From NCBI RefSeq assembly GCF_030013595.1, contig NZ_CP122768.1: a DNA stretch of 64,000 nt. One strand, written 5' to 3'. The position numbers and the translations under genes are program-made. The DNA comes from Escherichia coli. GTDB lineage: Bacteria; Pseudomonadota; Gammaproteobacteria; Enterobacterales; Enterobacteriaceae. The stretch's first letter is position 1. Each line of letters opens with the position of its first letter. Below the pieces are notes generated by a model. That model saw only the letters and a list, made by a program, of their open reading frames with translations. It was not told where the DNA came from and ran no database searches. Below, in pieces: positions 1 through 52,417 of the stretch.

Positions 1-253
1 GTTGGTAATGTCCGAGATAGGCGATCAGCTCACCACCGCGCGGTGTCAGCCAACCCAGTTTTACCGGCCAGGTTGGCCATGCGTCTGGGGTGACATCCTG
101 CATCAGTTGCGTGGCCTTGGTTGGTGCACGCACACCATGACGACTGACAATCACCACACTTTCCAGCTTCAGCTCCGGCTCACTCTGAGCGAATGCAGAT
201 TGCGGGGTTAACGGAATCAGAAGAGATAAAAATGGGATCAAGATCGCTTTCAT
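1..253 (-). CDS. appA: acid phosphatase/phytase AppA, 5' part only (gene runs off window start)
   Basis: Minus-strand ATG at 253..251 opens MKAILIPFLSLLIPLTPQSAFAQSEPELKLESVVIVSRHGVRAP..., the AppA signal peptide and N-terminus; lies after appB-appX as in the app operon. Confidence 0.85.
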   Translation of the reverse strand, partial: MKAILIPFLSLLIPLTPQSAFAQSEPELKLESVVIVSRHGVRAPTKATQLMQDVTPDAWPTWPVKLGWLTPRGGELIAYLGHYQ

Positions 254-332
254 CGATATGTTTCCGCTTTTCATATCCGACATTATTGATTGCCTGATAC
301 GACGCTAATGCGCCGCATCAGACTTACGTTCG

Positions 333-425
333 TTAACTTTTCAATCGCGGGTCCAGCCATACCAACACAAGGGTGGAGAGCGAACACATCAACAAAATGC
401 CGACGAACCAAAGTAAATACCACAT
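333..425 (-). CDS. appX: cytochrome bd-II accessory small membrane protein AppX (30 aa)
   Basis: 30-codon minus-strand ORF MWYLLWFVGILLMCSLSTLVLVWLDPRLKS, 12 bp downstream of appB stop; below the 60-aa cutoff of the ORF track. Confidence 0.75.
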   Translation of the reverse strand: MWYLLWFVGILLMCSLSTLVLVWLDPRLKS

Positions 426-437
426 TGTTCCCGCTCC

Positions 438-1574
438 TTAGTACAGCTCGTTTTCGTTACGGCGGAGAGTTTCTGTTGTCATGCGCCCCCACATTTTGTA
501 GTAGCTCCAGAGAGTGTAGAGCAACACAATGGGCAAAAATATCAGCACGATTACCAACATAATGCTCAGCGTCAGCTGGCTGGAAGTGCTGTCCCACAAC
601 GTCAGGCTGGAGATCGGACTCACGCTTGACGGCATGACAAAGGGGAACAGCGTGATGCCTGCCGTGAAAATCACGCCAAATTGCATCAATGACGCCATCA
701 AAAATCCCCAACCCGGGCGACCACGATAAATCGCCATCACCGTCAGTAATGGGCAGAAGAACCCCAGCAGCGGGAAGATCCACAGAACGGGCGATTCGAC
801 GAAATTATTCATCCAGGCACCAGGTAGCACTGCCACCAGTTTCATTAACGGATTGGAAGGACCGTTAGCATCCTGGGCGAGCAGTACAAAGCCATCAATA
901 CCGACCCACAGCCAGTAACCCGCCAGCAAAAAGCACAGCATCACCAGCAGTGCGGCGCGTTTGGTCGCCAGCTGTGAACGCAGATGAATCGCACCAACAG
1001 TTTTTAGTTGTAACCAGACGCCACCTTGCAAAATCACCATCCCAAGGCTGAGCAATCCGCACAATAAAGGGAATGGCGTCAGCAGTTGCCAAAAACTGCC
1101 GAGATATTCCACGCGTAATTGCGGTGTGAAGGCAAACGGCACGCCGAGCAGCAAGTTGCCGAAGGCGATACCGAAGACTACCGGCGGCACCAGACTGCCG
1201 ATGACCAGTCCGGCATCCCACATTTTACGCCAGCGTGCATCGGCGATTTTTCCGCGATAATCAAAGGCCAGCGGGCGGAAGAACAGCGAGCACAGCACCA
1301 GAATCATCGCCACATAAAAGCCGGAAAACGCCGCTGCATACACTCTGGGCCAGGCGGCAAATAATGCGCCACCTGCGAGGATTAACCAGACCTGATTGCC
1401 TTCCCAGTGCGCGCCAACGCTGTTTATCACTATCCGACGTTCATCATCATTACGCGCCACCAGCGGCAGCAGACAGCCGATCCCCATGTCAAATCCATCG
1501 GAGATCATAAAGACTACCAGGATCACGCCAATCAGCAGCCACCAGATGAAGCGCAATGTTTCATAATCAAACAT
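438..1574 (-). CDS. appB: cytochrome bd-II ubiquinol oxidase subunit II
   Basis: 378-aa polytopic membrane ORF recognisable as AppB (CydB family); 11-bp gap after appC. Confidence 0.95.
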
Positions 1575-1585
1575 GATTTTCTCCT

Positions 1586-3130
1586 TTACCCCTGTTGCTG
1601 CGTCGGTTGTTCACTCTGCATCGCGCTCGGCCCCAGACGGGCATATTTCTGCATCAGGTAGACTTCGGCGATTAAGAACAGGGTGTAAAGCCCTACGATC
1701 ATGATCAGTGAGAAAGCCAGTTGTCCTGTGGTTAAAGCGGAGTGCGCGGAGTATGTCGGTAAGATGTCCTGTATCGCCCACGGCTGACGACCAAACTCGG
1801 TCATAAACCACCCGGCTTCAATCGCAATCCACGGCAGCGGCAAACTCCAGAGCGCCATTTTCAGCACCCAGCGATGCTGGTCGATTTTGCCACGCAGCGT
1901 CTGGACAAGCGCAATAAGCATCACCAGTAGCAGCAGGGAACCACAGCCCACCATGATGCGGAAACTCCAGAATACCGGCGCAACCTGAGGTATCGCGCCA
2001 CGCATCGCCGCCTGGTACTGTGCGGCTGTGACATGATTCATATCCGGCGCATAGCGGGAGAGCAACATGCCGTAGCCCAGGTCGCCTTCCAGCTCCCGGA
2101 ATGCCTGCAACATATGCGGCTCTCGATTGCCTTGCGATATTTCCTGCATTAACAGCCAGGCCATACGTCCGCGTTGCAAGCGTGGGTAGGTTTCAGCCAT
2201 CAAATTCTTCAGACCCGGCACGGGTTTATCTAATGAGTGAGTGGCGAGGATCCCTAGCAGCGCGGGAATTTTGATGGCAAAGGCGTTACGCTCTTGATCC
2301 TGTTCCGGCCAGGCAACCACATGGAACGGTGCAGGTGCAGGTTCCGTTTGCCACTCCCCTTCCATCGCCGCCAGTTTTACCGGTTGTACTTGCGCGACTT
2401 CATACGCCGAACTGTCTCCGAGTTGCAGCGTACCGATAATCGCCAGAGTACCGAAGACGGAACCGATGGCAAACGAGCGTAATGCAACATCGCGCTCCCG
2501 TCCGCGCAGTAAATACCAGGCGCTGATCGCCATAATAAACATGGCCCCGGTCACGTAGCCCGCCATTACGGTGTGTACAAATTTCACCTGGCTGACCGGG
2601 TTAAAGACCAGCTCGCTGAAGCTGGTCATTTCCATGCGCAGGGTGTCGATATCAAAATGCGCACCGGTCGGGTATTGCATCCAACCGTTGGCATTCAATA
2701 TCCACAATGCAGAGAGATTTGAACCGAACGCCACCAGCCACGTCACCAGCAGGTGCTGGTATTTATTCAGCCGCTGCCAGCCGAAGAAGAACAGCCCGAC
2801 AAAGGTGGATTCGAGGAAGAAGGCCATTAATGCTTCCATCGCCAGCGGTGCGCCAAAAATATCGCCCACATAGTTGGAATAGAATGACCAGTTAGTACCA
2901 AACTGAAACTCCATGGTCAGGCCGGTAGCCACGCCAAGAGCAAAGTTGATACCGAAGAGCTTACCCCAGAAGCGCGTCATATCGCGGTAGATTGTTTTGC
3001 CGGTGACCACGTAAATGGTTTCCATGATAGCTAGCAAAAAAATCAGCCCCAGGGTAAGGGGTACAAATAAGAAGTGATACAGCGCGGTCAGAGCAAACTG
3101 CCAGCGCGATAAATCAATGACATCCCACAT
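1586..3130 (-). CDS. appC: cytochrome bd-II ubiquinol oxidase subunit I
   Basis: 514-aa ORF beginning [20 protein letters not shown] (second Met of the 516-aa track ORF); CydA-family sequence. Confidence 0.95.
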
Positions 3131-3263
3131 GCGCACTCCTGTAGGCGAAGAGAGAAAAATAACCCGTTAATGGTAGATCTCCCTCTTTATCCTGAAACTC
3201 TACGACCAGAGGTATTCGCCGATTGCGATATTCATAAGCCTGAAAGCGATACTTACCGTCTTT

Positions 3264-4121
3264 TTACGACGGTGCCCCTTCCGCCAGCCACTGACATACC
3301 TCACTAAGCCGCTGCGCAGAGTCGACCAAATCTTCTGGCGCTGCCAGAACCACTTCCGGTATCGGGCAGATTTCATAACTCTCAAGTAACGGGCCTTTTA
3401 AGGTGTCCGTGCAGCGTAAATGCCAGACATGGCGTAACCCCGTGGCGTTGATATAGCTCTCGCCATAGCCAATGGTGCGAATCTGAATATTTCCCGGCCC
3501 ACAGAGACGTGAGAGAAAAAGCCGATCAGCCTCGCTGATAGGTAATTGCGTCAGATTAATGCTGTGCGGCTGCGCGTCAGGATTACGTACATGTGCCAGT
3601 AATTCATGAGCCAACGGTAGGCCATTCATCAGGCCATCGATGGGCGGCGGTAACAGCGAATCTGTCGGCAAGACGTTTTGCGTTGCCGCCTGCCACAATG
3701 CCAGCGGCGCGCAGCCAGCCTCCAGTTTGTCCTCCAGCAACTTGTCGCCGCGACGTCTGCGCACCCGCCATAATCCGCAGAAGATCGCCTCCTGTATTTC
3801 ACTTTCACTGTCGTCAGCCTGCTGTATGCGCACTGACACTTCCCCTTCCCCGAGAAGCGTATTGATAAAGTGACGATCGTCGGCGTTGAGATTTAACAGA
3901 TCGACTGCCAGCACCTCGCCCAACGGCGGCTGGCGTTCGCTTAGTTGATGTTGTAACTCGTTTAACAGCGCAATCACCTGCGGGCTGTGAGCACATTGCT
4001 CCAGGGCCGCCATACTCGGTTCATCATTCACCTGACAGGTGATCGGCAGTGGATTCATGCTGAAACTGTCATCGTTCGGTTGCGTTCCTGGCCCCAGCAG
4101 ATGGAAAAAAGTTTCGCTCAT
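3264..4121 (-). CDS. hyaF: hydrogenase-1 operon protein HyaF
   Basis: 285-aa ORF from [14 protein letters not shown] (internal Met of track ORF 3264..4181); ATGA overlap with hyaE stop. Confidence 0.9.
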
Positions 4122-4516
4122 GAGGCACGCTCCTGTTGTGGTTCGACAAGCCCACGCATCAGGTTTATCAGTTCCGCCCACGGGTGAATACCATTCAGCA
4201 CGCCGCGATAGTTTCCGCCGGTAAACACTAATGTGGCGGGAAAGCGAAAGACGCCAAAGCGATCGCCGATGGCTTCGCTCTGCTCAAGGTCAGCAATCGC
4301 CACCTGCCATGTGTAGTCGGGAAACTCGCGCAGTAATTCGCCAATCATTACCGGATTATCGCTGACCTCTGGCGTGCGTTTCGGGTCACTGCTTAATAAC
4401 ACCACGCCGTCTGGCGCTTGCGTAAGCCAGTCGTCAAGACGGGATTCACTGACCGGCGTCCAGCCGCGCGCCAGCATTCGTTGCCACAACGCATCAAATG
4501 GCGTGTCGTTGCTCAT
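4118..4516 (-). CDS. hyaE: hydrogenase-1 operon protein HyaE
   Basis: 132-aa [22 protein letters not shown]..., operon position between hyaD and hyaF. Confidence 0.9.
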
Positions 4517-5100
4517 CCCTGCTCCTCCAGTGTCATCCGGTACTGGCGCAAGCGAACGCCTTCGTAATTTTCCATCGACAGACAGTCATAATTGAGACAG
4601 CGCGATTCATTAGCCGGTTGCGGCACAATTCCCCATGCAGCCAGCTGCGCCAGCGCCGCCTGTTCCGCTGCGGACAGTTGCTCCCGTGCCAGTTCGCTCA
4701 GGCTGCCGCCGTAGTCGTCGAGCATTGCGGGTTGCAGACCGACGAGGGCAATATGTGCTGGCAAATGACCACGTATATCCGCCAGCGCTAGCACTTCGGA
4801 GAAACTGTTCTGGTGCAGGCTCATTTTCTTCGCGCTGAGATAAGCCGGAATGCGTTCTCCGGCATACGTTCGTAGCGTTCCGGGTTCCAGCCCGTAATCA
4901 ATGGCATCGAGAATCAACAGATGACTGGCGCTTTCGACATACCCCAGCAAGTTCAGTCCTTGGGTGCCGCCATCGACAATCTCCACATACTCGGGCCAGT
5001 GGTAATGGGCATACAGCCGTTCCGCCACCCGCACGCCGAAGCCTTCATCGGCCCACAGCAGGTTACCCAGCCCCATTACCACCACGCGTTGCTCGCTCAT
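4513..5100 (-). CDS. hyaD: hydrogenase-1 maturation endopeptidase HyaD
   Basis: 195-aa [25 protein letters not shown]..., HybD/HyaD protease family; 4-bp overlaps with neighbours. Confidence 0.9.
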
Positions 5101-5804
5101 GAACGCTCCTTGTTACTTATTTTGCCAAATTTGTGGCTACGGTAGCCGTTGACCATAGTGGAGATCACCGTGTCGTCGGACATGATGTCTTCACGCAGCG
5201 CCATGTAGACATGACCGATCACAAACGCGCCAATCAGCCACATCCCCAGCCGATGCCAGCTGTGAATGTCCATTGAGTTGCCACCCGTCCAGTAGAAAAA
5301 TTCCACCACATAACGGAACGGCGCAAAAATAGCGTACTGGCTGTGTTCGCTGTACAGCGCAAAGCCGGTGATGATCATAAAAACTGACATCAGGAAATAG
5401 CCGAACATCGCCGCCTGGGCGATGGGGTTATGGCCTATATCGGCACTCGGACGTTTTGCCAGAAACAGATACCAGCGGATTTCATACCACACGCCCTGCC
5501 ACCAGCTTTTGCGCCATACTGGCACGATGAAAAGCTCGCGTGAGTAGCGATTGCCGACAAAAGCCCAGTAGATCCGCATCAGCAAGACCACGGTAAAAAC
5601 CATCCCGGCGCTGAAGTGAATCAACCTGATATAGCCCATGTAAAACAGATACGTCGCCTCACCGCTGACCGAAGGCAGCGGTTTGCCGATGAAGTAACCG
5701 GTGACCATCAACACCGCCATGCATAACACTGTCAGCCAGTGCCAGATACGGACCGGCGCTTCAAAGACATAATGGCTGACAACGTTGTCACTTTTCTGTT
5801 GCAT
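5097..5804 (-). CDS. hyaC: hydrogenase-1 b-type cytochrome subunit HyaC
   Basis: 235-aa membrane ORF with conserved His-containing helices; operon position. Confidence 0.92.
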
Positions 5805-5822
5805 GATGATTCTCCTTCGCTG

Positions 5823-7616
5823 TTAACGCACCTGCACGGAGATCAGCTCGCTACCGTCGTCGCCCAGCACGTGTGTTGAACAGGCGAGGCACGGGTCAAA
5901 GCTGTGCAGAGTACGCAGGATCTCCAGCGGTTGCTCGGGGATCGCCATTTTGGTGTTCATCAGCGCCGCTTCATAAGCGCCAATTTGCCCTTTAGGATCG
6001 CGCGGGCTGGCGTTCCAGGTGGTCGGCACCACGCACTGATAGAGATCAATCTTGCCATCGCGAATGGCAGCCCAGTGGCCTAACGCCCCGCGCGGCGCTT
6101 CGGTAAAGCCGACGCCACGGCACTCTGTCGGCCAGGTTGTAGGTTCCCATTTTTCAGTGGAAGCAGTGGCGAGATTGCCGTTTTTCAGATTGGTCATCAG
6201 CTTATCGAAGAAATACTGCAACTTACCTGCGGCCCACTGCGCTTCGTGCGCGCGACACAAAATGCGGCCCAACGTTGACTGGATGCCGGAAAGCGGCAGT
6301 TTCAACGCCGACATCATGCGATCGACCGACTCAACGGTCGCAGCATCGCCTTTGTGATAAGCGATTAACGTGCGTGCCAGCGGCCCCACTTCCATCGCGT
6401 TACCGCGCCAGCGTGGCGCTTTAATCCACGAGTAGCGTTCCTGTTCATTCAGCTGCTGAATGTTGGTATCGCTGCCTTTGACATCGCCGGGGTTGTACCA
6501 CGGGTCGGTGATGCCATCGAACGGATGACGCCCGACCTGATCGTTGGGATATCGATACCAGGCGTGGTCGACAAACTCCTGCACCTGCTGCGGATCAACC
6601 AAATCCACTGGCAGCACATTGTTGAAGTCGCCGTTAATCACCGCGCCGCCAGGCATCAGCAGACTTTTCTCGCCAAAGTCGTTGGCGATATCCGGGAACG
6701 CGCCGTAACTGAGAACGCATTTATCAGAAAGACCCGTGCCGATTTCGCTCCACGGTTTGTTGAACTGACCAATGGCTAAGGCGTCGGGGATCATCACGTT
6801 GTTAATGAAATCCGCCGTGCGGGTAATGATTGACTGCACCAGGTTCAGGCGTTCCATATTGACCGCCCCGACCGCGCCGCTTTCGTCAATGTTAATGGCG
6901 CAAGGCATCCCGCCGACAATCCAGTTTGGATGCGGGTTTTTACCGCCAAAGACCGCGTGGATTTTGACAATTTCACGCTGGAAATCGAGAGCTTCGAGAT
7001 AGTGGGCAAAGCCCATCAGGTTGGCTTCTGGCGGCAGTTTGTACTGCGGGTGCCCCCAGTAGCCATTGCGGAAGATCCCCAACTGCCCACCTTCAACGAA
7101 TTTCTTCAGGCGGTTTTGTACGTCGAAGAAATAGCCAGGGGATGATTTCGGCCAAGAGGAGAGACTTTGCGCCAGTTCGGAGGTTTTCCGCGGGTCGGCT
7201 TTCAGCGCATCTAACACATCGATCCAGTCCATCCCGGCAAGCTGATAGAAGTGCACCAGATGATCGTGGCACCAGAGCGTTGCCAGCATAATGTTGCGGA
7301 TGATATTAGCGTTGTCCGGCACTTTAATACCAATGGCATCTTCGATGGCGTAAACCGAAGCCAGAGCGTGTACGCCGGTACAGACGCCGCAGATACGTTC
7401 AACGAACGCCCACGCATCGCGCGGGTCTCGCCCTTGCAGAATGATCTCCAGCCCGCGAAACATGGTGCCGCAGGAGACGGCATTGGTGATCACATTCTGA
7501 TCGTTAATATTCACTTCGCAGCGCATGTGGCCTTCAATGCGCGTAATCGGGTCGACCACCAGGCGGCGTCCGGCATTATTGATGGTGTATCCCTGAGTTT
7601 CGTACTGAGTGCTCAT
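5823..7616 (-). CDS. hyaB: [NiFe] hydrogenase-1 large subunit HyaB
   Basis: 597-aa ORF with N-terminal RxCGxC and C-terminal DPCxxCxxH Ni-binding motifs (...[13 protein letters not shown]...). Confidence 0.95.
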
Positions 7617-8731
7617 GCCTGTTTATCCTCATTGCCTGGCTGATGTTCGGTTTCTGTAGGTTGCTGGTTATGACGTCTGCGCTGGTCAACGGCGCTGGCG
7701 ACTGCGTGCACACCAACAGCCGCTGCCACCACGCCAAGTGCGGTTAAACCGACGGTATCGGCGGTGGAATGAGTACCCATTTGCGGAATATCGACCACGC
7801 GGCTGTAGAACGAACCGCGATCCCAGAAACCATTTTCCGCACAGCCCAGGCAGCCGTGACCAGACTGGATTGGGAAAGAAACGCCATCATTCCAGCGTGT
7901 GGAGGAACAGGCGTTATAGGTGGTAGGTCCTTTGCAACCCATTTTGTACAGGCAGTAACCTTTGCGGGCAGCGTCATCATCCCAACTCTGGACGAACTCT
8001 CCGGCGTCGAAGTGAGCGCGGCGATAACATTTATCGTGGATACGCTGACCATAAAACATCAGTGGACGGCCCATTCTGTCGACATCTGGCAAGCGATCAA
8101 AGGTCACCATGTAAGTAATGATGGCGCTCATCACATCCGGGATCGGCGGGCAGCCAGGTACTTTGATAATAGGTTTGTCGGTGATGACTTTGTCGATAGG
8201 CGTTGCCTGCGTCGGATTGGGTCGCGCGGCCTGCACGCAGCCCCAGGACGCGCAGGTTCCCCAGGCGATAATCGCACTGGCTCCGGCAGCGGCACGTTTG
8301 AGTTTCTCAATAAACGGTCGTCCGCTGCTGATACAGAACATCCCCTGCTCGCCCAGCGGCGGATTACCTTCTACTGCGAGGATATATTTGCCATTGTATT
8401 GCGTGATGATGTCTTCAAAGACTTCTTCCGCCTGGGTTCCGGCGGCAGCCATCAAAGTATCGTCATAATCGAGGGAAATCAGGGAAAGGATGACGTCCTT
8501 CGCCAGCGGGTGAGCGGAGCGGATAAAAGATTCGGTACAGCAGGTGCATTCCAGACCGTGGATCCATACCACCGGAATGCGCGGTTTGTTCTCCAGCGCC
8601 CAGGCAATCTTTGGTGCCATTCCCGCGCCTAAGCCCAGCGACGTGGCAGCCAGACTACAATATTTGAGAAAGCTGCGCCGGGTAACGCCCTGACGCCGCA
8701 TGGCCTGGTAAAATGTTTCCTCGTTATTCAT
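7613..8731 (-). CDS. hyaA: [NiFe] hydrogenase-1 small subunit HyaA (Tat signal peptide)
   Basis: 372-aa ORF from [25 protein letters not shown] (twin-arginine motif); ATG at 8731..8729 inside the longer track ORF. Confidence 0.93.
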
Positions 8732-9116
8732 ATCGCACGTCTCTTCTCCTTGCGACACCGGCAGGACACCGGGCGCTTATGGTCGGCAAGCGACGTCCCT
8801 GTAGCAAGGCAAACCATCGCTTCACGTGAGATGCTGAAAACGAAAGCTCATCCTTCTGCACTGGCGCACGTCGCCAGAAAGTATTGTTAATAAAGCGTAG
8901 TGAAACTTTTGCACAAAACAATACAAACTGTATGGATTTATCTTTTAGCGATAAAAATGGACCTATTTTTCTTTTTGCCGGGCAGTGGGGATGTTTAGCC
9001 GGTTGCTAAACGAGTAAAAGAGAAGGAATTCATGGTGATGAAATGATCAATCTGCTGTTATTTCACGCTATCAATGCACTTTTGTCTGTTTTTCAGGCAA
9101 ACAAACAAATTAGGGG
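8732..9116. promoter_or_regulatory. hyaA upstream control region, divergent from serT
   Basis: 385-bp AT-rich non-coding interval upstream of hyaA start; exact promoter and operator sites not resolved by eye. Confidence 0.4.
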
Positions 9117-9145
9117 TTTACACGCCGCATCGGGATGTTTATAGT
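9117..9145 (+). promoter_or_regulatory. sigma-70 promoter of serT
   Basis: TTTACA (9117..9122), 17-bp spacer, TATAGT (9140..9145), GC-rich discriminator, about 12 bp before the mature tRNA 5' end. Confidence 0.6.
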
Positions 9146-9157
9146 GCGCGTCATTCC

Positions 9158-9245
9158 GGAAGTGTGGCCGAGCGGTTGAAGGCACCGGTCTTGAAAACCG
9201 GCGACCCGAAAGGGTTCCAGAGTTCGAATCTCTGCGCTTCCGCCA
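9158..9245 (+). tRNA. serT: tRNA-Ser (anticodon UGA)
   Basis: 88-nt sequence GGAAGTGTGGCCGAGCGGTTGAAGGCACCGGTCTTGAAAACCGG...GAATCTCTGCGCTTCCGCCA with long variable arm and anticodon loop CTTGAAA; encoded CCA end. Confidence 0.92.
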
Positions 9246-9252
9246 AATAATC

Positions 9253-9286
9253 AAGGGGTTACCAAATGGTAACCCCTTTGCTTTTT
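9253..9286 (+). terminator. rho-independent terminator after serT
   Basis: Perfect hairpin AAGGGGTTACC-AAAT-GGTAACCCCTT followed by TGCTTTTT. Confidence 0.75.
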
Positions 9287-9292
9287 GGGCTC

Positions 9293-9323
9293 TTGGTATA
9301 AACTTGGTATACCAATTGGTATA
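9293..9323. repeat. three phased TTGGTATA repeats including a perfect 16-bp palindrome TATACCAATTGGTATA
   Basis: TTGGTATA at 9293, 9304 and 9316 (11-12 bp phasing); 9308..9323 is its own reverse complement. Confidence 0.7.
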
Positions 9324-9508
9324 TTTTCTGCCAAAAAATTCCTAAAATCCCCTCCAGCACAAACAATCACTTGCTCATTCATACTTTATCAAGAAAATAT
9401 CCTTGCAAGTTATGTTGTTTCTTTCTGCGTCCCGACAGGGTGTCATGGTTCCCCACTTCTCTCGGGATGGACACTTAACGGACGAGAAATTTTCAGGTGT
9501 CATTCAGA

Positions 9509-9547
9509 CGCGCTTCGGCCCCGGATTGGCGAAGCGCGCTTTTTTTC
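9509..9547 (+). terminator. orphan rho-independent terminator between serT and tfa
   Basis: Stem CGCGCTTCG (9509..9517) / CGAAGCGCG (9530..9538) followed by CTTTTTTTCTC. Confidence 0.5.
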
Positions 9548-9693
9548 TCAGATTATTTCGTTTTGCCTGAGTGTTGAATAACGCCACTACAGTTATATAA
9601 GCTGGAAATCATTCAATACTCGCACTATCGAAAGTTCACCAGCCAACCGCAGCACGTACTGCATACGTCGTGTCTGCGGTTTTTCTTTTTCAC

Positions 9694-10278
9694 TTACATT
9701 GTGTCTGGTTCTTCCGGCCACACAATATCCGGTGCTACTGATGTATCAACACGGTTCAGCAACACCCGATACTTTTTCCAGGCTTCCAGCAACGAGTTTT
9801 CTTCCTCCGTTGCGATCTCCAGATCTACAGCATCCTGAAGTGGCGCAATATGCTCACTGGCTACCTGCATCAGGCTGTTTTTTGTTTCTTCCGCCTCCCG
9901 GATCCGGAACAGTTTTTCTGCTTCTGCATCTTTCACCCAGGCTGTGCCGTTCCACTTCTGAAACTCCCCTTCCGGCGATAACCAGGTAACATTTTCCGGT
10001 AACGGACCGAGTTCAGAAATAAATAACGCGTCCCCTGACGCTACGTCATAAACCGTTTTACCCCGATGGTCTTCAACGAGATGCCACGATGTCTCATCAC
10101 TGTTGAAAACAGCCACGAAGCCTGCCGGAATATCTGGCGTTGCAATATCGGTACTGTTTGCTGGCAGACCTGTATGAGGTGGAATGTATGCATCACCTTC
10201 ACCAATAAATTCATTAGTTCCGGCCAGCAGATTATAAATTTTTATGGTCCGTGCTTGTTCACTCATTCTGAATGCCAT
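9694..10278 (-). CDS. tfa: tail fibre assembly protein Tfa
   Basis: 194-aa ORF, same length as lambda Tfa; overlaps stf stop. Confidence 0.9.
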
Positions 10279-12758
10279 TATGCAAGCCTCACAATATAGT
10301 TAAATGCGATGTTTTTGACGGTGTTTTCCGCGTTACCAGCAGCGTTAACGGTGATGGTGTGTCCATGTGAGCCAATCGCAACAGAGTGCGTATGAGCACC
10401 AATACCGACAGTATGTGCGTGAGCACCTGCAGATGCAGCTGTGCCGCTGACACTATGAGTGTGCGCTCCTGCAGCACTTGTATTCACACTGGCCGCAGAC
10501 ACTACCTTATGTACTGACCCATTTTGTGACCACTGGCTGACTGCTGATGCGCCTGTGACACTATGAGTATGGTTTCCGGCACTTGCGGCTGTACCGCTCA
10601 CACTGTGCGTATGCGCCCCGGTGTTATTCGTGGATTTAGTGCCGTAATCAAACGACGATGTGGTTTTCGTCCCCAAATCCGTACTGGATGCGCTGGCGCT
10701 GTGGGTGTGCGATTTAATGCCGTCCTGTTCCTGAGACAATACGGCCCGACCACTGGCAGGTTTGCCCTTAATCGTCCAGCCACGCATATCAGGGATCACG
10801 CCTGACGGATAAGCGGCTGCAAGTTTCGGGTATGCAGATTTGTCAAAAGTCTGCCCCTGCATCAGGGCATAACCAGACGGAACGGTATCTGATGGCCACG
10901 GGATTGGTGCACCGACTGGGTAGCTTTCTGGTGGAAGATTTTTCGAGGTATAAACTTCTGCCCAGTCTTCCTCAAAACCATAACCGTCTCTTGAAGAACG
11001 GTAGAACAGACCACCATTTCTGTAATGCGCCTTCATCTGCAGGGTCCGGCAACTTCCGACTCCGGTATAGAAGTTAACCAGAATATAGCTGTTGCCTGTC
11101 CGGGTGACATTGTATGCACCAGATTTAGCATTCCACGGAACGCCTCCCTCTGACTCTGCGTGCACACCAGACGATCCAAGAGCAAAAGCAGAGACATCTG
11201 CAGCGGACAGCCTGATGTCTGATTTCAATGCCTTACCATTCACCTTACGACCAGATGGAACCCGGTCATTTGCATTATCATTCACCGCTTTCACCGCCAT
11301 TGGTGTTGCCGCCAGCGATTCACTGTCACTGTCCGTGGCACTGCTGAGCTGTACCACCCCCTTTCTCGTCGTGCTCGCATCCTCTAGCGCCACGGCAGAT
11401 GCAATATCCTCTGCCCGTTTTGCTGCTGTCTCGGCACGCGTTGCTGCAGATTCCGACGTACTTTTGCTCTGAGCTGCCGCTGTCGCACTACCAGCTGCCT
11501 CTGTCGCCTTCGTGGATGCCGTCGTGGCACTGACCTTCGCCTCTGACGCCTGTCTTACCGCCTCATCTTTTGAAGCAGACGCCGATGATGCTGATGACGC
11601 CGCCGAACTGGCGGACGATGCGGCTGCCGTTTCTGAGGCTCCTGCGCGGGTTTCCGACGCTTTCGCATTCGTCTCAGATGTCTTCGCTGCGGAAGCAGAA
11701 CTCGCAGCTGCAGTGGCCTGTTCAGTGGCTTCGCCAGCCTTCGTTGTGGCTGTTGAAGCGGACGATGCAGCGCTTTCTGCCGATTTTCCGGCGGCAGCGG
11801 CACTGGCTACAGCCTCCCCTGCCTTCACTGATGCCTCACGGGCCGATGATGCAGCCGCGGTTTCTGAGCCTGCCGCAGCTGAGGCACTCTGTCCCGCTGC
11901 CGTTTCAGAAGACTTAGCGTTTGTCTCAGACGTCTTTGCCGCCTTCGCGGAATTTCCTGCCGCCGTTGCCGAGGAGGCTGCACTACTGGCACTCGAGGCT
12001 GCGCTCGTTTCTGATGATTTTGCCGCCTCTTTTGAAGCCGACGCATCCCTGGCTGAGGAGGCAGCTTCTGACGCTTTCGTGGTCGCGGTGGATGCAGAGG
12101 TGGCTGCTGATTGTTGTGACGCTGCAGCATTCGTTTCAGACGTTTTCGCGGCACCGGCACTGGTGGCCGCCGCGCTTTTTGAGGACTCTGCAGCGGCAGC
12201 ACTTTTTGAGGCTTCAGTGGCCTTTGTTGATGCCGTTCCTGCGCTGGAAGACGCTGACTGAGCCGACGAAGCGGCCTGTCCGGCTGACGTGCTGGCTGCA
12301 CGTGCTGAATCTGCAGCATCAGTCGCATGGGTTGCCGCCTCACGGGCAGATGTGCTGGCATCACTGGCTGACTTCTTCGCGGCTGCCGTGTTCTGTGCCA
12401 CCACGGACGCGTTACGCGCCACCTCTTCCACCATCAGTTCAAAACGGCGCAGTGCCTCCGGACGGGCATCATCCTCCGTCATGGCACCGAGAAAATCATT
12501 CAGCGTACCGGGTTGAGAATCTTCATACACGGTGATGGTCCCGGCATGCGAAGGCGGAAAACCTTCAACCAGCAGGGTGACACTGTACTGACCGTACTCA
12601 ACGTCCATGCTGTAACGCCCGGCTTCATCCGGATTTTCTGAGGCCAGCGTGTTCACCACCACCGTGGTACTGTTACGTTTTGCTTTCAGCTGGATTGTGC
12701 AGTTCTGTACCGGTTTTCCTGTGCCGTCTTTCAGTACACCTGAAATCTTTACTGCCAT
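10278..12758 (-). CDS. stf: side tail fibre protein Stf
   Basis: Starts [26 protein letters not shown] as lambda Stf; long Ala/Ser-rich shaft; C-terminal ...[31 protein letters not shown]. Confidence 0.88.
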
Positions 12759-32863: not shown

Positions 32864-32883
32864 AAAAAGGCCGCAGAGCGGCC
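32864..32883 (-). terminator. candidate rho-independent terminator for the int-cargo transcript
   Basis: Hairpin GGCCGC-AGA-GCGGCC (32869..32883) preceded on the plus strand by AAAAA, i.e. followed by a U-run on the minus strand; about 125 bp after the 146-aa ORF stop. Confidence 0.5.
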
Positions 32884-51839: not shown

Positions 51840-52417
51840 GCGCAGAACTCATGCGACTGCTGAGCAATATCATCCGCACCGGGATCATCTCTGAAGTTGA
51901 TGAGAAGTCCTGGCGCGTGCGCGTTCGCAGCGGCGAACTGGAAACAGGCTGGTTGCGCTGGAACACCACGCGCGCGGGAGCCTTCAATGTATGGCTGCCG
52001 CCATCACCAGGCGAACAGGTGGTAATTGCCTGCATTGGCGGCAACCCGGAAACCGCCATGATAATTGGCAGCCTGTGGAGTGATGCCAGTCCGGCCCCCG
52101 GCAAAAGCCTGAAAGAAATCGTGGTCAGCGCGCCGGATGGCGCGGCGTTCCGCTACGACGCAGACGCTGGCGCACTGAGCGCCAGCGGCATGAAAACAGC
52201 CACCCTGCAGGCATCCGTCAGCGTGACACTGGATACGCCCGTCGTGGAATGCACAAACCTTCTGAGAACAGCGACGCTTGACGTCACAAAAGGGGGAAAG
52301 ATGAGCGGCAATATCACGCACAGCGGCGGCGATTTCACCTCAAACGGCATCACAGTGCATACGCATAAGCACGGTGGCGTTAAAGGTGGCAGCGATTCGA
52401 CAGGAGGCCCGCAGTGA
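51836..52417 (+). CDS. V: baseplate spike protein, P2 gpV family
   Basis: 193-aa ORF with OB-fold-like N-terminus and Gly-rich C-terminal tip region. Confidence 0.88.
   Translation: MSAELMRLLSNIIRTGIISEVDEKSWRVRVRSGELETGWLRWNTTRAGAFNVWLPPSPGEQVVIACIGGNPETAMIIGSLWSDASPAPGKSLKEIVVSAPDGAAFRYDADAGALSASGMKTATLQASVSVTLDTPVVECTNLLRTATLDVTKGGKMSGNITHSGGDFTSNGITVHTHKHGGVKGGSDSTGGPQ

Follow-up and report, generated by a model that had tools for sequence, protein, structure and literature searches.

Three direct copies of TTGGTATA lie downstream of serT in the 64,000-nucleotide stretch of Escherichia coli DNA analysed here (the window). We read these repeats as tandem arm-type sites, equivalent to P'1, P'2 and P'3 of phage lambda, in the attP of a serT-integrating lambdoid phage that has an integrase (Int) of the lambda Int family. 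From the comparisons described below, we put the probability of this reading at roughly 85%. The repeats at the serT junction are an ordinary and well-understood kind of element and bring nothing new to the lambda paradigm. The TTGGTATA motif, and the fixed geometry of the family, appear to be undescribed in the open-access literature searched; among open-access papers on serT att sites, the motif and Sp4/serT, we found no description of arm sites.

A repeat array downstream of serT

The window reads from the hya operon, through serT, into the tail-fibre end of a lambdoid prophage. The putative P'1, P'2 and P'3 equivalents occupy positions 9293..9300, 9304..9311 and 9316..9323 of the + strand. 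This places them at +101, +112 and +124 with respect to the first anticodon base. Read directly, the copies in 9293-9323 start 11 and 12 bp apart. A single inverted copy of the motif is found at 9308. Counting both strands, TTGGTATA matches the window four times and all of the matches are inside the same 31 bp. The expected count is 0.66 +/- 0.78, and four matches were reached in none of 100 dinucleotide shuffles. The array of three TTGGTATA copies is more than chance.

It is hardly credible, on these data, that the repeats have no function and arose by chance, or by slippage, at the end of the prophage. Four matches within 31 bp, against an expectation of 0.66, argue against such an origin. 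So does the retention of repeat position, number and orientation while other att-arm sequence diverged between lineages. Finally, the conserved block stops sharply at 9327 across mosaic phages.

A first-pass annotation had described a perfect 16-bp palindrome, TATACCAATTGGTATA, at 9308..9323, with a third half-site upstream, and had placed the first repeat 48 bp from the tRNA 3' end. Direct reading bears out both statements, with serT at 9158-9245. A second perfect palindrome, TTGGTATACCAA, of 12 bp and at 9304-9315, had been missed.

The host/phage junction is inside serT

The serT gene (9158..9245, + strand), for tRNA-Ser(UGA), was delimited using ARAGORN, Rfam (RF00005) and a four-way alignment. 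In this alignment, the junction of the window is set against an empty, K-12-like serT-yccA site (L003), the NZ_CM149870 prophage junction on the int side (L002) and the attP of Escherichia phage Evi (L004). A 65-bp identity block (CGGTCTTGAAAACCGG...CCGCCAAATAA; 9186..9250, + strand) is common to the empty site, both prophage junctions and the free-phage attP. The block begins in the 5' strand of the anticodon stem and ends 5 nt beyond the tRNA. To the left of the block, the window is the same as the empty site; to the right, it is the same as Evi attP. The int-side junction of NZ_CM149870 is the reciprocal of the window junction, and the four sequences fit the classical attB/attP/attL/attR relationship. 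Because the identity of the window switches from empty site to Evi attP across the block, strand exchange must, according to the alignment, fall within 9186..9250, inside serT. The gene in the lysogen is a hybrid, with a 5' part from the host and a 3' part inside the identity block. Phage-specific sequence starts at 9251 and the first repeat is 42 bp further in. The earlier proposal that phage DNA begins at the repeats is therefore slightly off.

The attP holds the 3' part of the tRNA, from the anticodon stem on, and serT is intact in the lysogen. These are features of the anticodon-loop class of integration, which was reportedly set out by Williams in 2002. The identity block starts at the anticodon stem-loop, CCGGT-CTTGAAA-ACCGG (9185..9201, + strand). 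By analogy, we infer that this stem-loop provides the core-type Int sites, with the stem as inverted repeat, and the crossover region. In one viral contig (L072; IMG/VR 2657245112_000012), the int-side arm joins unrelated DNA right after CTTCGGTCT, at ~4160-4180. The break point is the start of the anticodon loop. The contig may represent a secondary-site insertion, and the position of the break hints at a crossover at the anticodon loop.

A terminator scan detected a phage-borne intrinsic terminator for the reconstituted serT at 9253..9286 (+ strand). This consists of an 11-bp stem (9253-9278) followed by a T-run. The phage and host terminators differ by compensatory changes in the stem (GC..GC versus CC..GG), and the same type is present in Evi attP. 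Judged from these sequences, the serT terminator in this lysogen is supplied by the phage. Since the host and phage terminators are alike, prophage-free E. coli match the window as far as 9285 and no further. No TTGGTATA array is present downstream of serT in prophage-free E. coli, for example at the K-12-like site. This was the check proposed in the first-pass annotation, and the association of the array with the phage stands.

The sequence TTTT (9324..9327, + strand) ends the conserved att module. Matches in O157 and O145 genomes, phage Evi and two IMG/VR contigs (L030 and L073) all stop at ~9327. The sequences diverge from 9328 on, which is a mosaic boundary and the start of the cargo. We take 9327 to be the outer edge of the module because there the sequences of the phages, the window and the O157 and O145 prophages cease to match one another. 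The att module is compact (9186-9327), and its outer edge is a cargo swap point in serT prophages of pathogenic E. coli; tccP2 in O157:H7 is an example of such swapped cargo. The placement of the junction inside serT, and the phage-supplied terminator, can be used in the annotation of such lysogens.

Both attP arms carry the motif

The other end of the lambdoid prophage, and its integrase, are absent from the 64-kb window, since the lambdoid prophage is broken at ~32.9 kb by the insertion of a P2-like prophage. With the window's own integrase lying outside, Int was assigned from the near-identical E. coli sequence NZ_CM149870. The window is collinear with NZ_CM149870 up to ~32.88 kb, and the two are 99.99% identical over window positions 1-11582. 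The NZ_CM149870 prophage ends with a DUF4224 gene and the gene for a 339-aa tyrosine integrase, followed by yccA.

Apart from L030, L046, L072 and L073, the loci returned by a search with Int were mostly uninformative prophages of 97-100% identity, cut off at the int stop. Contiguous attP sequences were obtained from phage Evi and contigs L030 and L073. In all three, the order is int stop, ~30 bp, one TTGGTATA, ~105 bp, the serT 3' half, the hairpin and the tandem array. The array reads TTGGTATA-aac-TTGGTATA-ccaa-TTGGTATA-TTTT. Thus, TTGGTATA occurs in both arms, once at -117 (P) and three times in P', in Evi, L030, L073 and the NZ_CM149870 prophage. A short motif in both arms, unrelated to the core, is what lambda-type arm sites look like. 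Contig L046 (IMG/VR 2778261065_000020; ~4040-4290) carries CTGGTATA, not TTGGTATA, in both arms. This contig has a single distal copy and its Int is 98% identical.

Residues 1-318 of Int (WP_001396447.1; 339 aa) align to residues 1-339 of lambda Int (phmmer versus PDB, 1z1b, E=1.9e-17). The N-terminal segment MGRPRKN..LPPRV..GYSYVWKP (MGRxR..LPP..Y.Y) corresponds to the lambda arm-binding domain, and lambda is included in the N-terminal alignment of the family. The Pfam models for arm-binding domains had no match in Int, where only the catalytic domain (PF00589) was detected. Hence, the homology of the Int N-terminus rests on the PDB and family alignments.

The motif changes with the integrase at fixed offsets

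A tblastn search of phage genomes identified Int homologues, of 42-60% identity, in Chris1, 606R7, BUCT708, ST64B, KpF5, ZF40, mEp390 and Fostie. Contigs L140 (66%), L103 and L164 were added from IMG/VR. All attPs were set in the tRNA-sense orientation, and positions were counted from the first anticodon base. The layout comparison covered ten attPs from 8 Int lineages (42-60% identity).

The motif is TTGGTATA in the serT phage, Chris1 and L140, CTTGGAAT in 606R7, CTTAGAATA in BUCT708 and TGAGAAAA in ST64B and KpF5. It is TTCGCCAT in mEp390, TTCCTAATAT in ZF40 and TTCATAATA in Fostie. Over the 8 Int lineages, the seven motif classes are found at conserved offsets. A tandem direct array of 2-4 copies is present in all ten attPs. 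A direct site is at -116/-117 in eight and an inverted site is at -52 to -54 in seven. For members using tRNA-Ser, the array positions are +101/+102, +112/+113 and +124 to +126. The array is further out, from +128 to +137, in three non-tRNA-Ser members. The five-site layout, with an array of 3-4 copies, is seen for Chris1, ST64B, KpF5 and mEp390. In ZF40 the array of this layout has two copies, and the layout is partial in BUCT708 and Fostie. Where the N-domains are most alike, the motifs are the same or nearly so: cTTGGTATA (serT phage, Chris1 and L140), CTTGGAAT (606R7) and CTTAGAATA (BUCT708).

Arm-type Int sites are expected to keep their geometry and to differ in motif from one integrase to the next; this is the pattern seen, and we favour them on that account. 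For the same reason, readings of the repeats as an operator, or as excisionase sites, are hard to reconcile with the data. An integrase arm-type site was one of the options given in the first-pass annotation, and it is strongly supported, with the motif found in each attP arm and the geometry conserved. The family rule (direct site at -117, inverted site at -53, array from +101 in tRNA-Ser members, and a motif that changes along with the Int N-domain) could be used to predict which arm sites are recognised by integrases that are as yet uncharacterised.

In principle, tandem direct repeats might also be sites for an excisionase. The phased repeats would then be bound by the DUF4224 excisionase, a recombination directionality factor (RDF), coating the DNA as a filament in the manner of lambda Xis at X1-X1.5-X2. 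There is precedent for this, since lambda Xis binds adjacent direct repeats. Furthermore, a DUF4224 protein, encoded just upstream of int, accompanies int and carries an excisionase annotation in ST64B, mEp390, ZF40 and Fostie. We nevertheless consider the idea quite unlikely. The sites for lambda Xis are confined to one arm, and this is not the arm with three tandem Int sites. Conversely, the motif described here is in both arms; with the direct site at -117 and, in relatives, the inverted site at -53, there are five sites in the pattern of lambda Int. Sites for an RDF would be expected in one arm, between the Int arm site and the core, whereas this motif is also at the outer end of the P' arm. 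The motif also tracks the similarity of Int N-domains, as arm-type Int sites would.

Phage BUCT708 (L006; OM816834) was deposited as a Stenotrophomonas phage. Its attP core (2520-2680) is identical to the 3' half of E. coli serT. The arm repeats are CTTAGAATA, and the third of these is inside the 3' end of int.

An IHF-like site between the core and the array

The sequence AATCAAGGGGTTA, at 9249..9261 (+ strand), is an exact match to the IHF consensus WATCAANNNNTTR. Only 6 of 2000 shuffles of the 62-bp spacer gave a match as good. L140 also has an exact match, at the same offset and on the same strand, with the same shuffle result (6/2000). Seven other tRNA-Ser members have a match with one mismatch, again with offset and strand conserved, and BUCT708 has two mismatches. 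The host sequence at the corresponding position, GATAAGGGG, contains no match to the IHF consensus. By analogy with lambda, the sequence at 9249-9261 would be the equivalent of H', between the core and P'1.

The palindrome is confined to one lineage

The arrays with the TTGGTATA motif differ in their spacers. In the E. coli serT phage these are aac and ccaa, and the array is palindromic. The spacers are gac and ctcag at the Salmonella serT junction (L007), where the first copy is TTGGTACA. They are ctg and ttcac in L140, gtg and ttcac in Chris1 and L126, gtg and ttcaa in L103, and gtg and ctcgc in L164; none of these arrays is palindromic. Thus, the six spacer variants keep three TTGGTATA copies (one being TTGGTACA in Salmonella) and only the E. 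coli serT variant has the palindrome. The Salmonella sequence, in which the palindrome is lost, is TTGGTATActcagTTGGTATA. The second spacer is the 4-nt CCAA in the E. coli lineage and 5 nt long in all other lineages. Some of these variants came from a pattern scan of viral contigs for tandem TTGGTATA. The scan returned 120 loci, mostly unrelated low-complexity sequences or other repeat systems. Nine were in a tRNA-att context: L104 (the window lineage), L103, L126/L133/L134, L140, L164, L102 and L127. Four further spacer variants are represented by L103, L126/L133/L134, L140 and L164. The arrays in L102 and L127 are differently arranged.

Because the palindrome is found in 1 of the six spacer variants, we take it, on this comparison, to be a side effect, peculiar to one lineage, of a CCAA spacer between two sites of the same orientation; it is not the functional unit. 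The earlier argument that a perfect palindrome marks the site of a dimeric protein finds no support here; what related phages have in common is a set of three repeats, all in one orientation, whose distance from the tRNA is fixed. The operator and RDF options raised at the same time are disfavoured, given that the motif is in both attP arms and that there is no promoter nearby.

The best case for an operator involves the dimeric host hexuronate repressors UxuR and ExuR, which would put the att arm, or a cargo gene, under sugar-acid control. A scan against the UxuR operator identified the palindrome AACTTGGTATACCAATTG at 9301..9318, which comprises site 2, CCAA and the start of site 3. Over its 18 bp, 16 bases match the idealised UxuR operator AAATTGGTATACCAATTT (PMC8092373), and the TGGT-N4-ACCA core is perfect. 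This is closer than the best K-12 boxes found upstream of uxuA/gntP, uxuR, uxaC/exuT and exuR, which have 4-5 mismatches to AAATTGGTATACCAATTT. The 4-nt CCAA spacer, specific to the E. coli lineage where others have 5 nt, is also consistent with such a role. However, given TTGGTATA, a CCAA spacer alone (1 in 256) creates the match. No promoter-like (sigma-70-like) site is present in 9250-9700 on either strand, and so none overlaps or adjoins the palindrome. The downstream content varies between phages. Furthermore, the palindrome is missing from the five other spacer variants that keep three repeats and so is not needed for att function. In comparison with an operator of UxuR/ExuR (GntR family), the sequence at 9301-9318 has no promoter context and no sister-arm conservation, and is inside the arm of a recombination site. 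Hence, we regard control by UxuR/ExuR as improbable, and the match as probably incidental. It would be a long shot to propose that, in the E. coli serT lineage, CCAA reshaped P'2/P'3 into a near-consensus UxuR/ExuR operator, at which the repressor competes with Int and couples integration and excision to glucuronate, galacturonate and fructuronate in the gut.

Comparison with known systems

In lambda, P1 is direct (-140) and P2 is inverted (-109); the core follows, and then P'1-P'3, which are direct (+56, +66 and +77). The lambda attP has the same site order and orientations as the arm-type sites of the family, the tandem sites are ~10-13 bp apart and Int is homologous over the full length. 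The IHF site H' of lambda is between the core and the tandem array, where the window has its IHF-consensus match. There are also differences. The lambda motif is C/AAGTCACTAT rather than TTGGTATA. The lambda core is 15 bp, between gal and bio, whereas here the 3' half of a tRNA gene, with its identity block of 65 bp, forms the core. The tandem array is at +56 to +77 in lambda and at +101 to +124 here, with a transcription terminator in between.

The P arm is a further point of difference. An inverted P2-like site at -53, which the other seven lineages have, was searched for in the serT/Evi P arm and was not found. The arm does have a degenerate direct sequence, TTGGTGTY, at ~-73. The serT/Evi lineage has P1 and P'1-3 sites, and int abuts the P arm, not the tandem array (P' arm) as in lambda, L140 and other relatives. 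Since the inverted -53 site is missing and int is on the opposite side of attP, the serT/Evi P arm may work somewhat differently.

Phages ST64B, KpF5, Chris1, mEp390 and ZF40 have Int of the same family (42-60% identity) and a DUF4224 excisionase. As here, their core is a tRNA 3' half from the anticodon stem and they have the direct site at -117. The array is at +101 to +126 in the tRNA-Ser relatives and further out in mEp390 and ZF40. Chris1 has the same TTGGTATA motif, whereas most of the relatives have other motifs (TGAGAAAA, TTCGCCAT and TTCCTAATAT). Their tRNAs differ, being of the tRNA-Ser CGA type or a TAA-anticodon tRNA taken for Leu. All five phages have the inverted -53 site, and int adjoining the tandem array, and none has the palindrome.

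These comparisons suggest how the site could operate. The window holds a B-O-P' junction, like lambda attL in composition, but at the integrase-distal, tail-fibre end of the prophage. The parts of this junction are the host serT 5' part, the 65-bp block, the IHF-like site, the phage terminator and the array of putative arm sites. If Int acts like its lambda homologue, each protomer would contact one TTGGTATA repeat through its small N-terminal domain. The C-terminal domains would bind the core at the anticodon stem-loop, ~100 bp from the repeats. A bend at 9249-9261, probably made by IHF, would fold the arm back so that arm-bound Int could reach the core. Delivery of Int to the core would lead to integration or, together with the DUF4224 excisionase, to excision. 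Int binding, the role of IHF and the exact position of the crossover are all inferred in this scheme.

Occurrence, cargo and neighbouring elements

The att arm is present in 702 of 5426 complete E. coli genomes (13%), including O157:H7. The match ends at 9327 in nearly all of these carrier genomes. Nearly all of 25 sampled matches have no annotated feature under the arm; two overlap a tail-fibre assembly gene. In the window, this gene is at 9694-10278 (- strand) and is separated from the att arm by a 366-bp non-coding stretch (9328-9693). Two GC-rich hairpins with T-runs were seen by eye, at ~9500-9548 and ~9648-9685, and these are not among the results of the terminator scan. A full-length match to Rfam IS009 (RF02111; 223 bits), at 9737-9935 (- strand), overlaps the tail-fibre assembly gene.

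The serT prophage of O157:H7 (tccP2 and an espV remnant), which we take to be Sp4/CP-933M, has the same junction and arm up to window position 9327. The cargo differs, consisting of effector genes in O157:H7 and of the non-coding stretch and tail-fibre assembly gene in the window. In O157:H7 NZ_CP089032 (L096, 3441-4981), an espV pseudogene and a frameshifted tccP2 are directly past the att arm. In phage Evi (L004, 2888-3070), this position is taken by an espV fragment. Because espV and tccP2 sit directly past it, we identify the att-arm edge (window 9327) as an insertion point for effector cargo.

A decayed attP copy is found beside espO, nleG and espM in the Stx2a phage/PPompW of O157 (LC567818; L005, ~2450-2680). 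The copy has a mutated serT 3' half and the same hairpin; one of its arms carries TTGGTACA, and the opposite arm TTGGTATA-ccca-TTGGTACA. No integrase was found within this locus. On sequence grounds, the copy resembles the fossil of an att site, at a locus where effectors are exchanged.

The P2-like prophage (32864-64000) is inserted just past the small-terminase/cos end of the lambdoid prophage. It is read integrase first and runs to the end of the window. A 20-bp stretch, 32864-32883, falls in alignments to both the P2-like and the lambdoid elements, and may be the att core of the P2-like prophage. A direct repeat of 11-12 nt, at 9329 and 54237, was rejected as an att core; it lies in the P2-type tail-fibre gene and is due to chance. 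ARAGORN also reported a tRNA-Leu(CAG) in the P2-like prophage, at 52123-52212 (- strand). This scores below the Rfam tRNA gathering threshold; it may be a false positive, or else a degenerate att fragment that resembles a tRNA.
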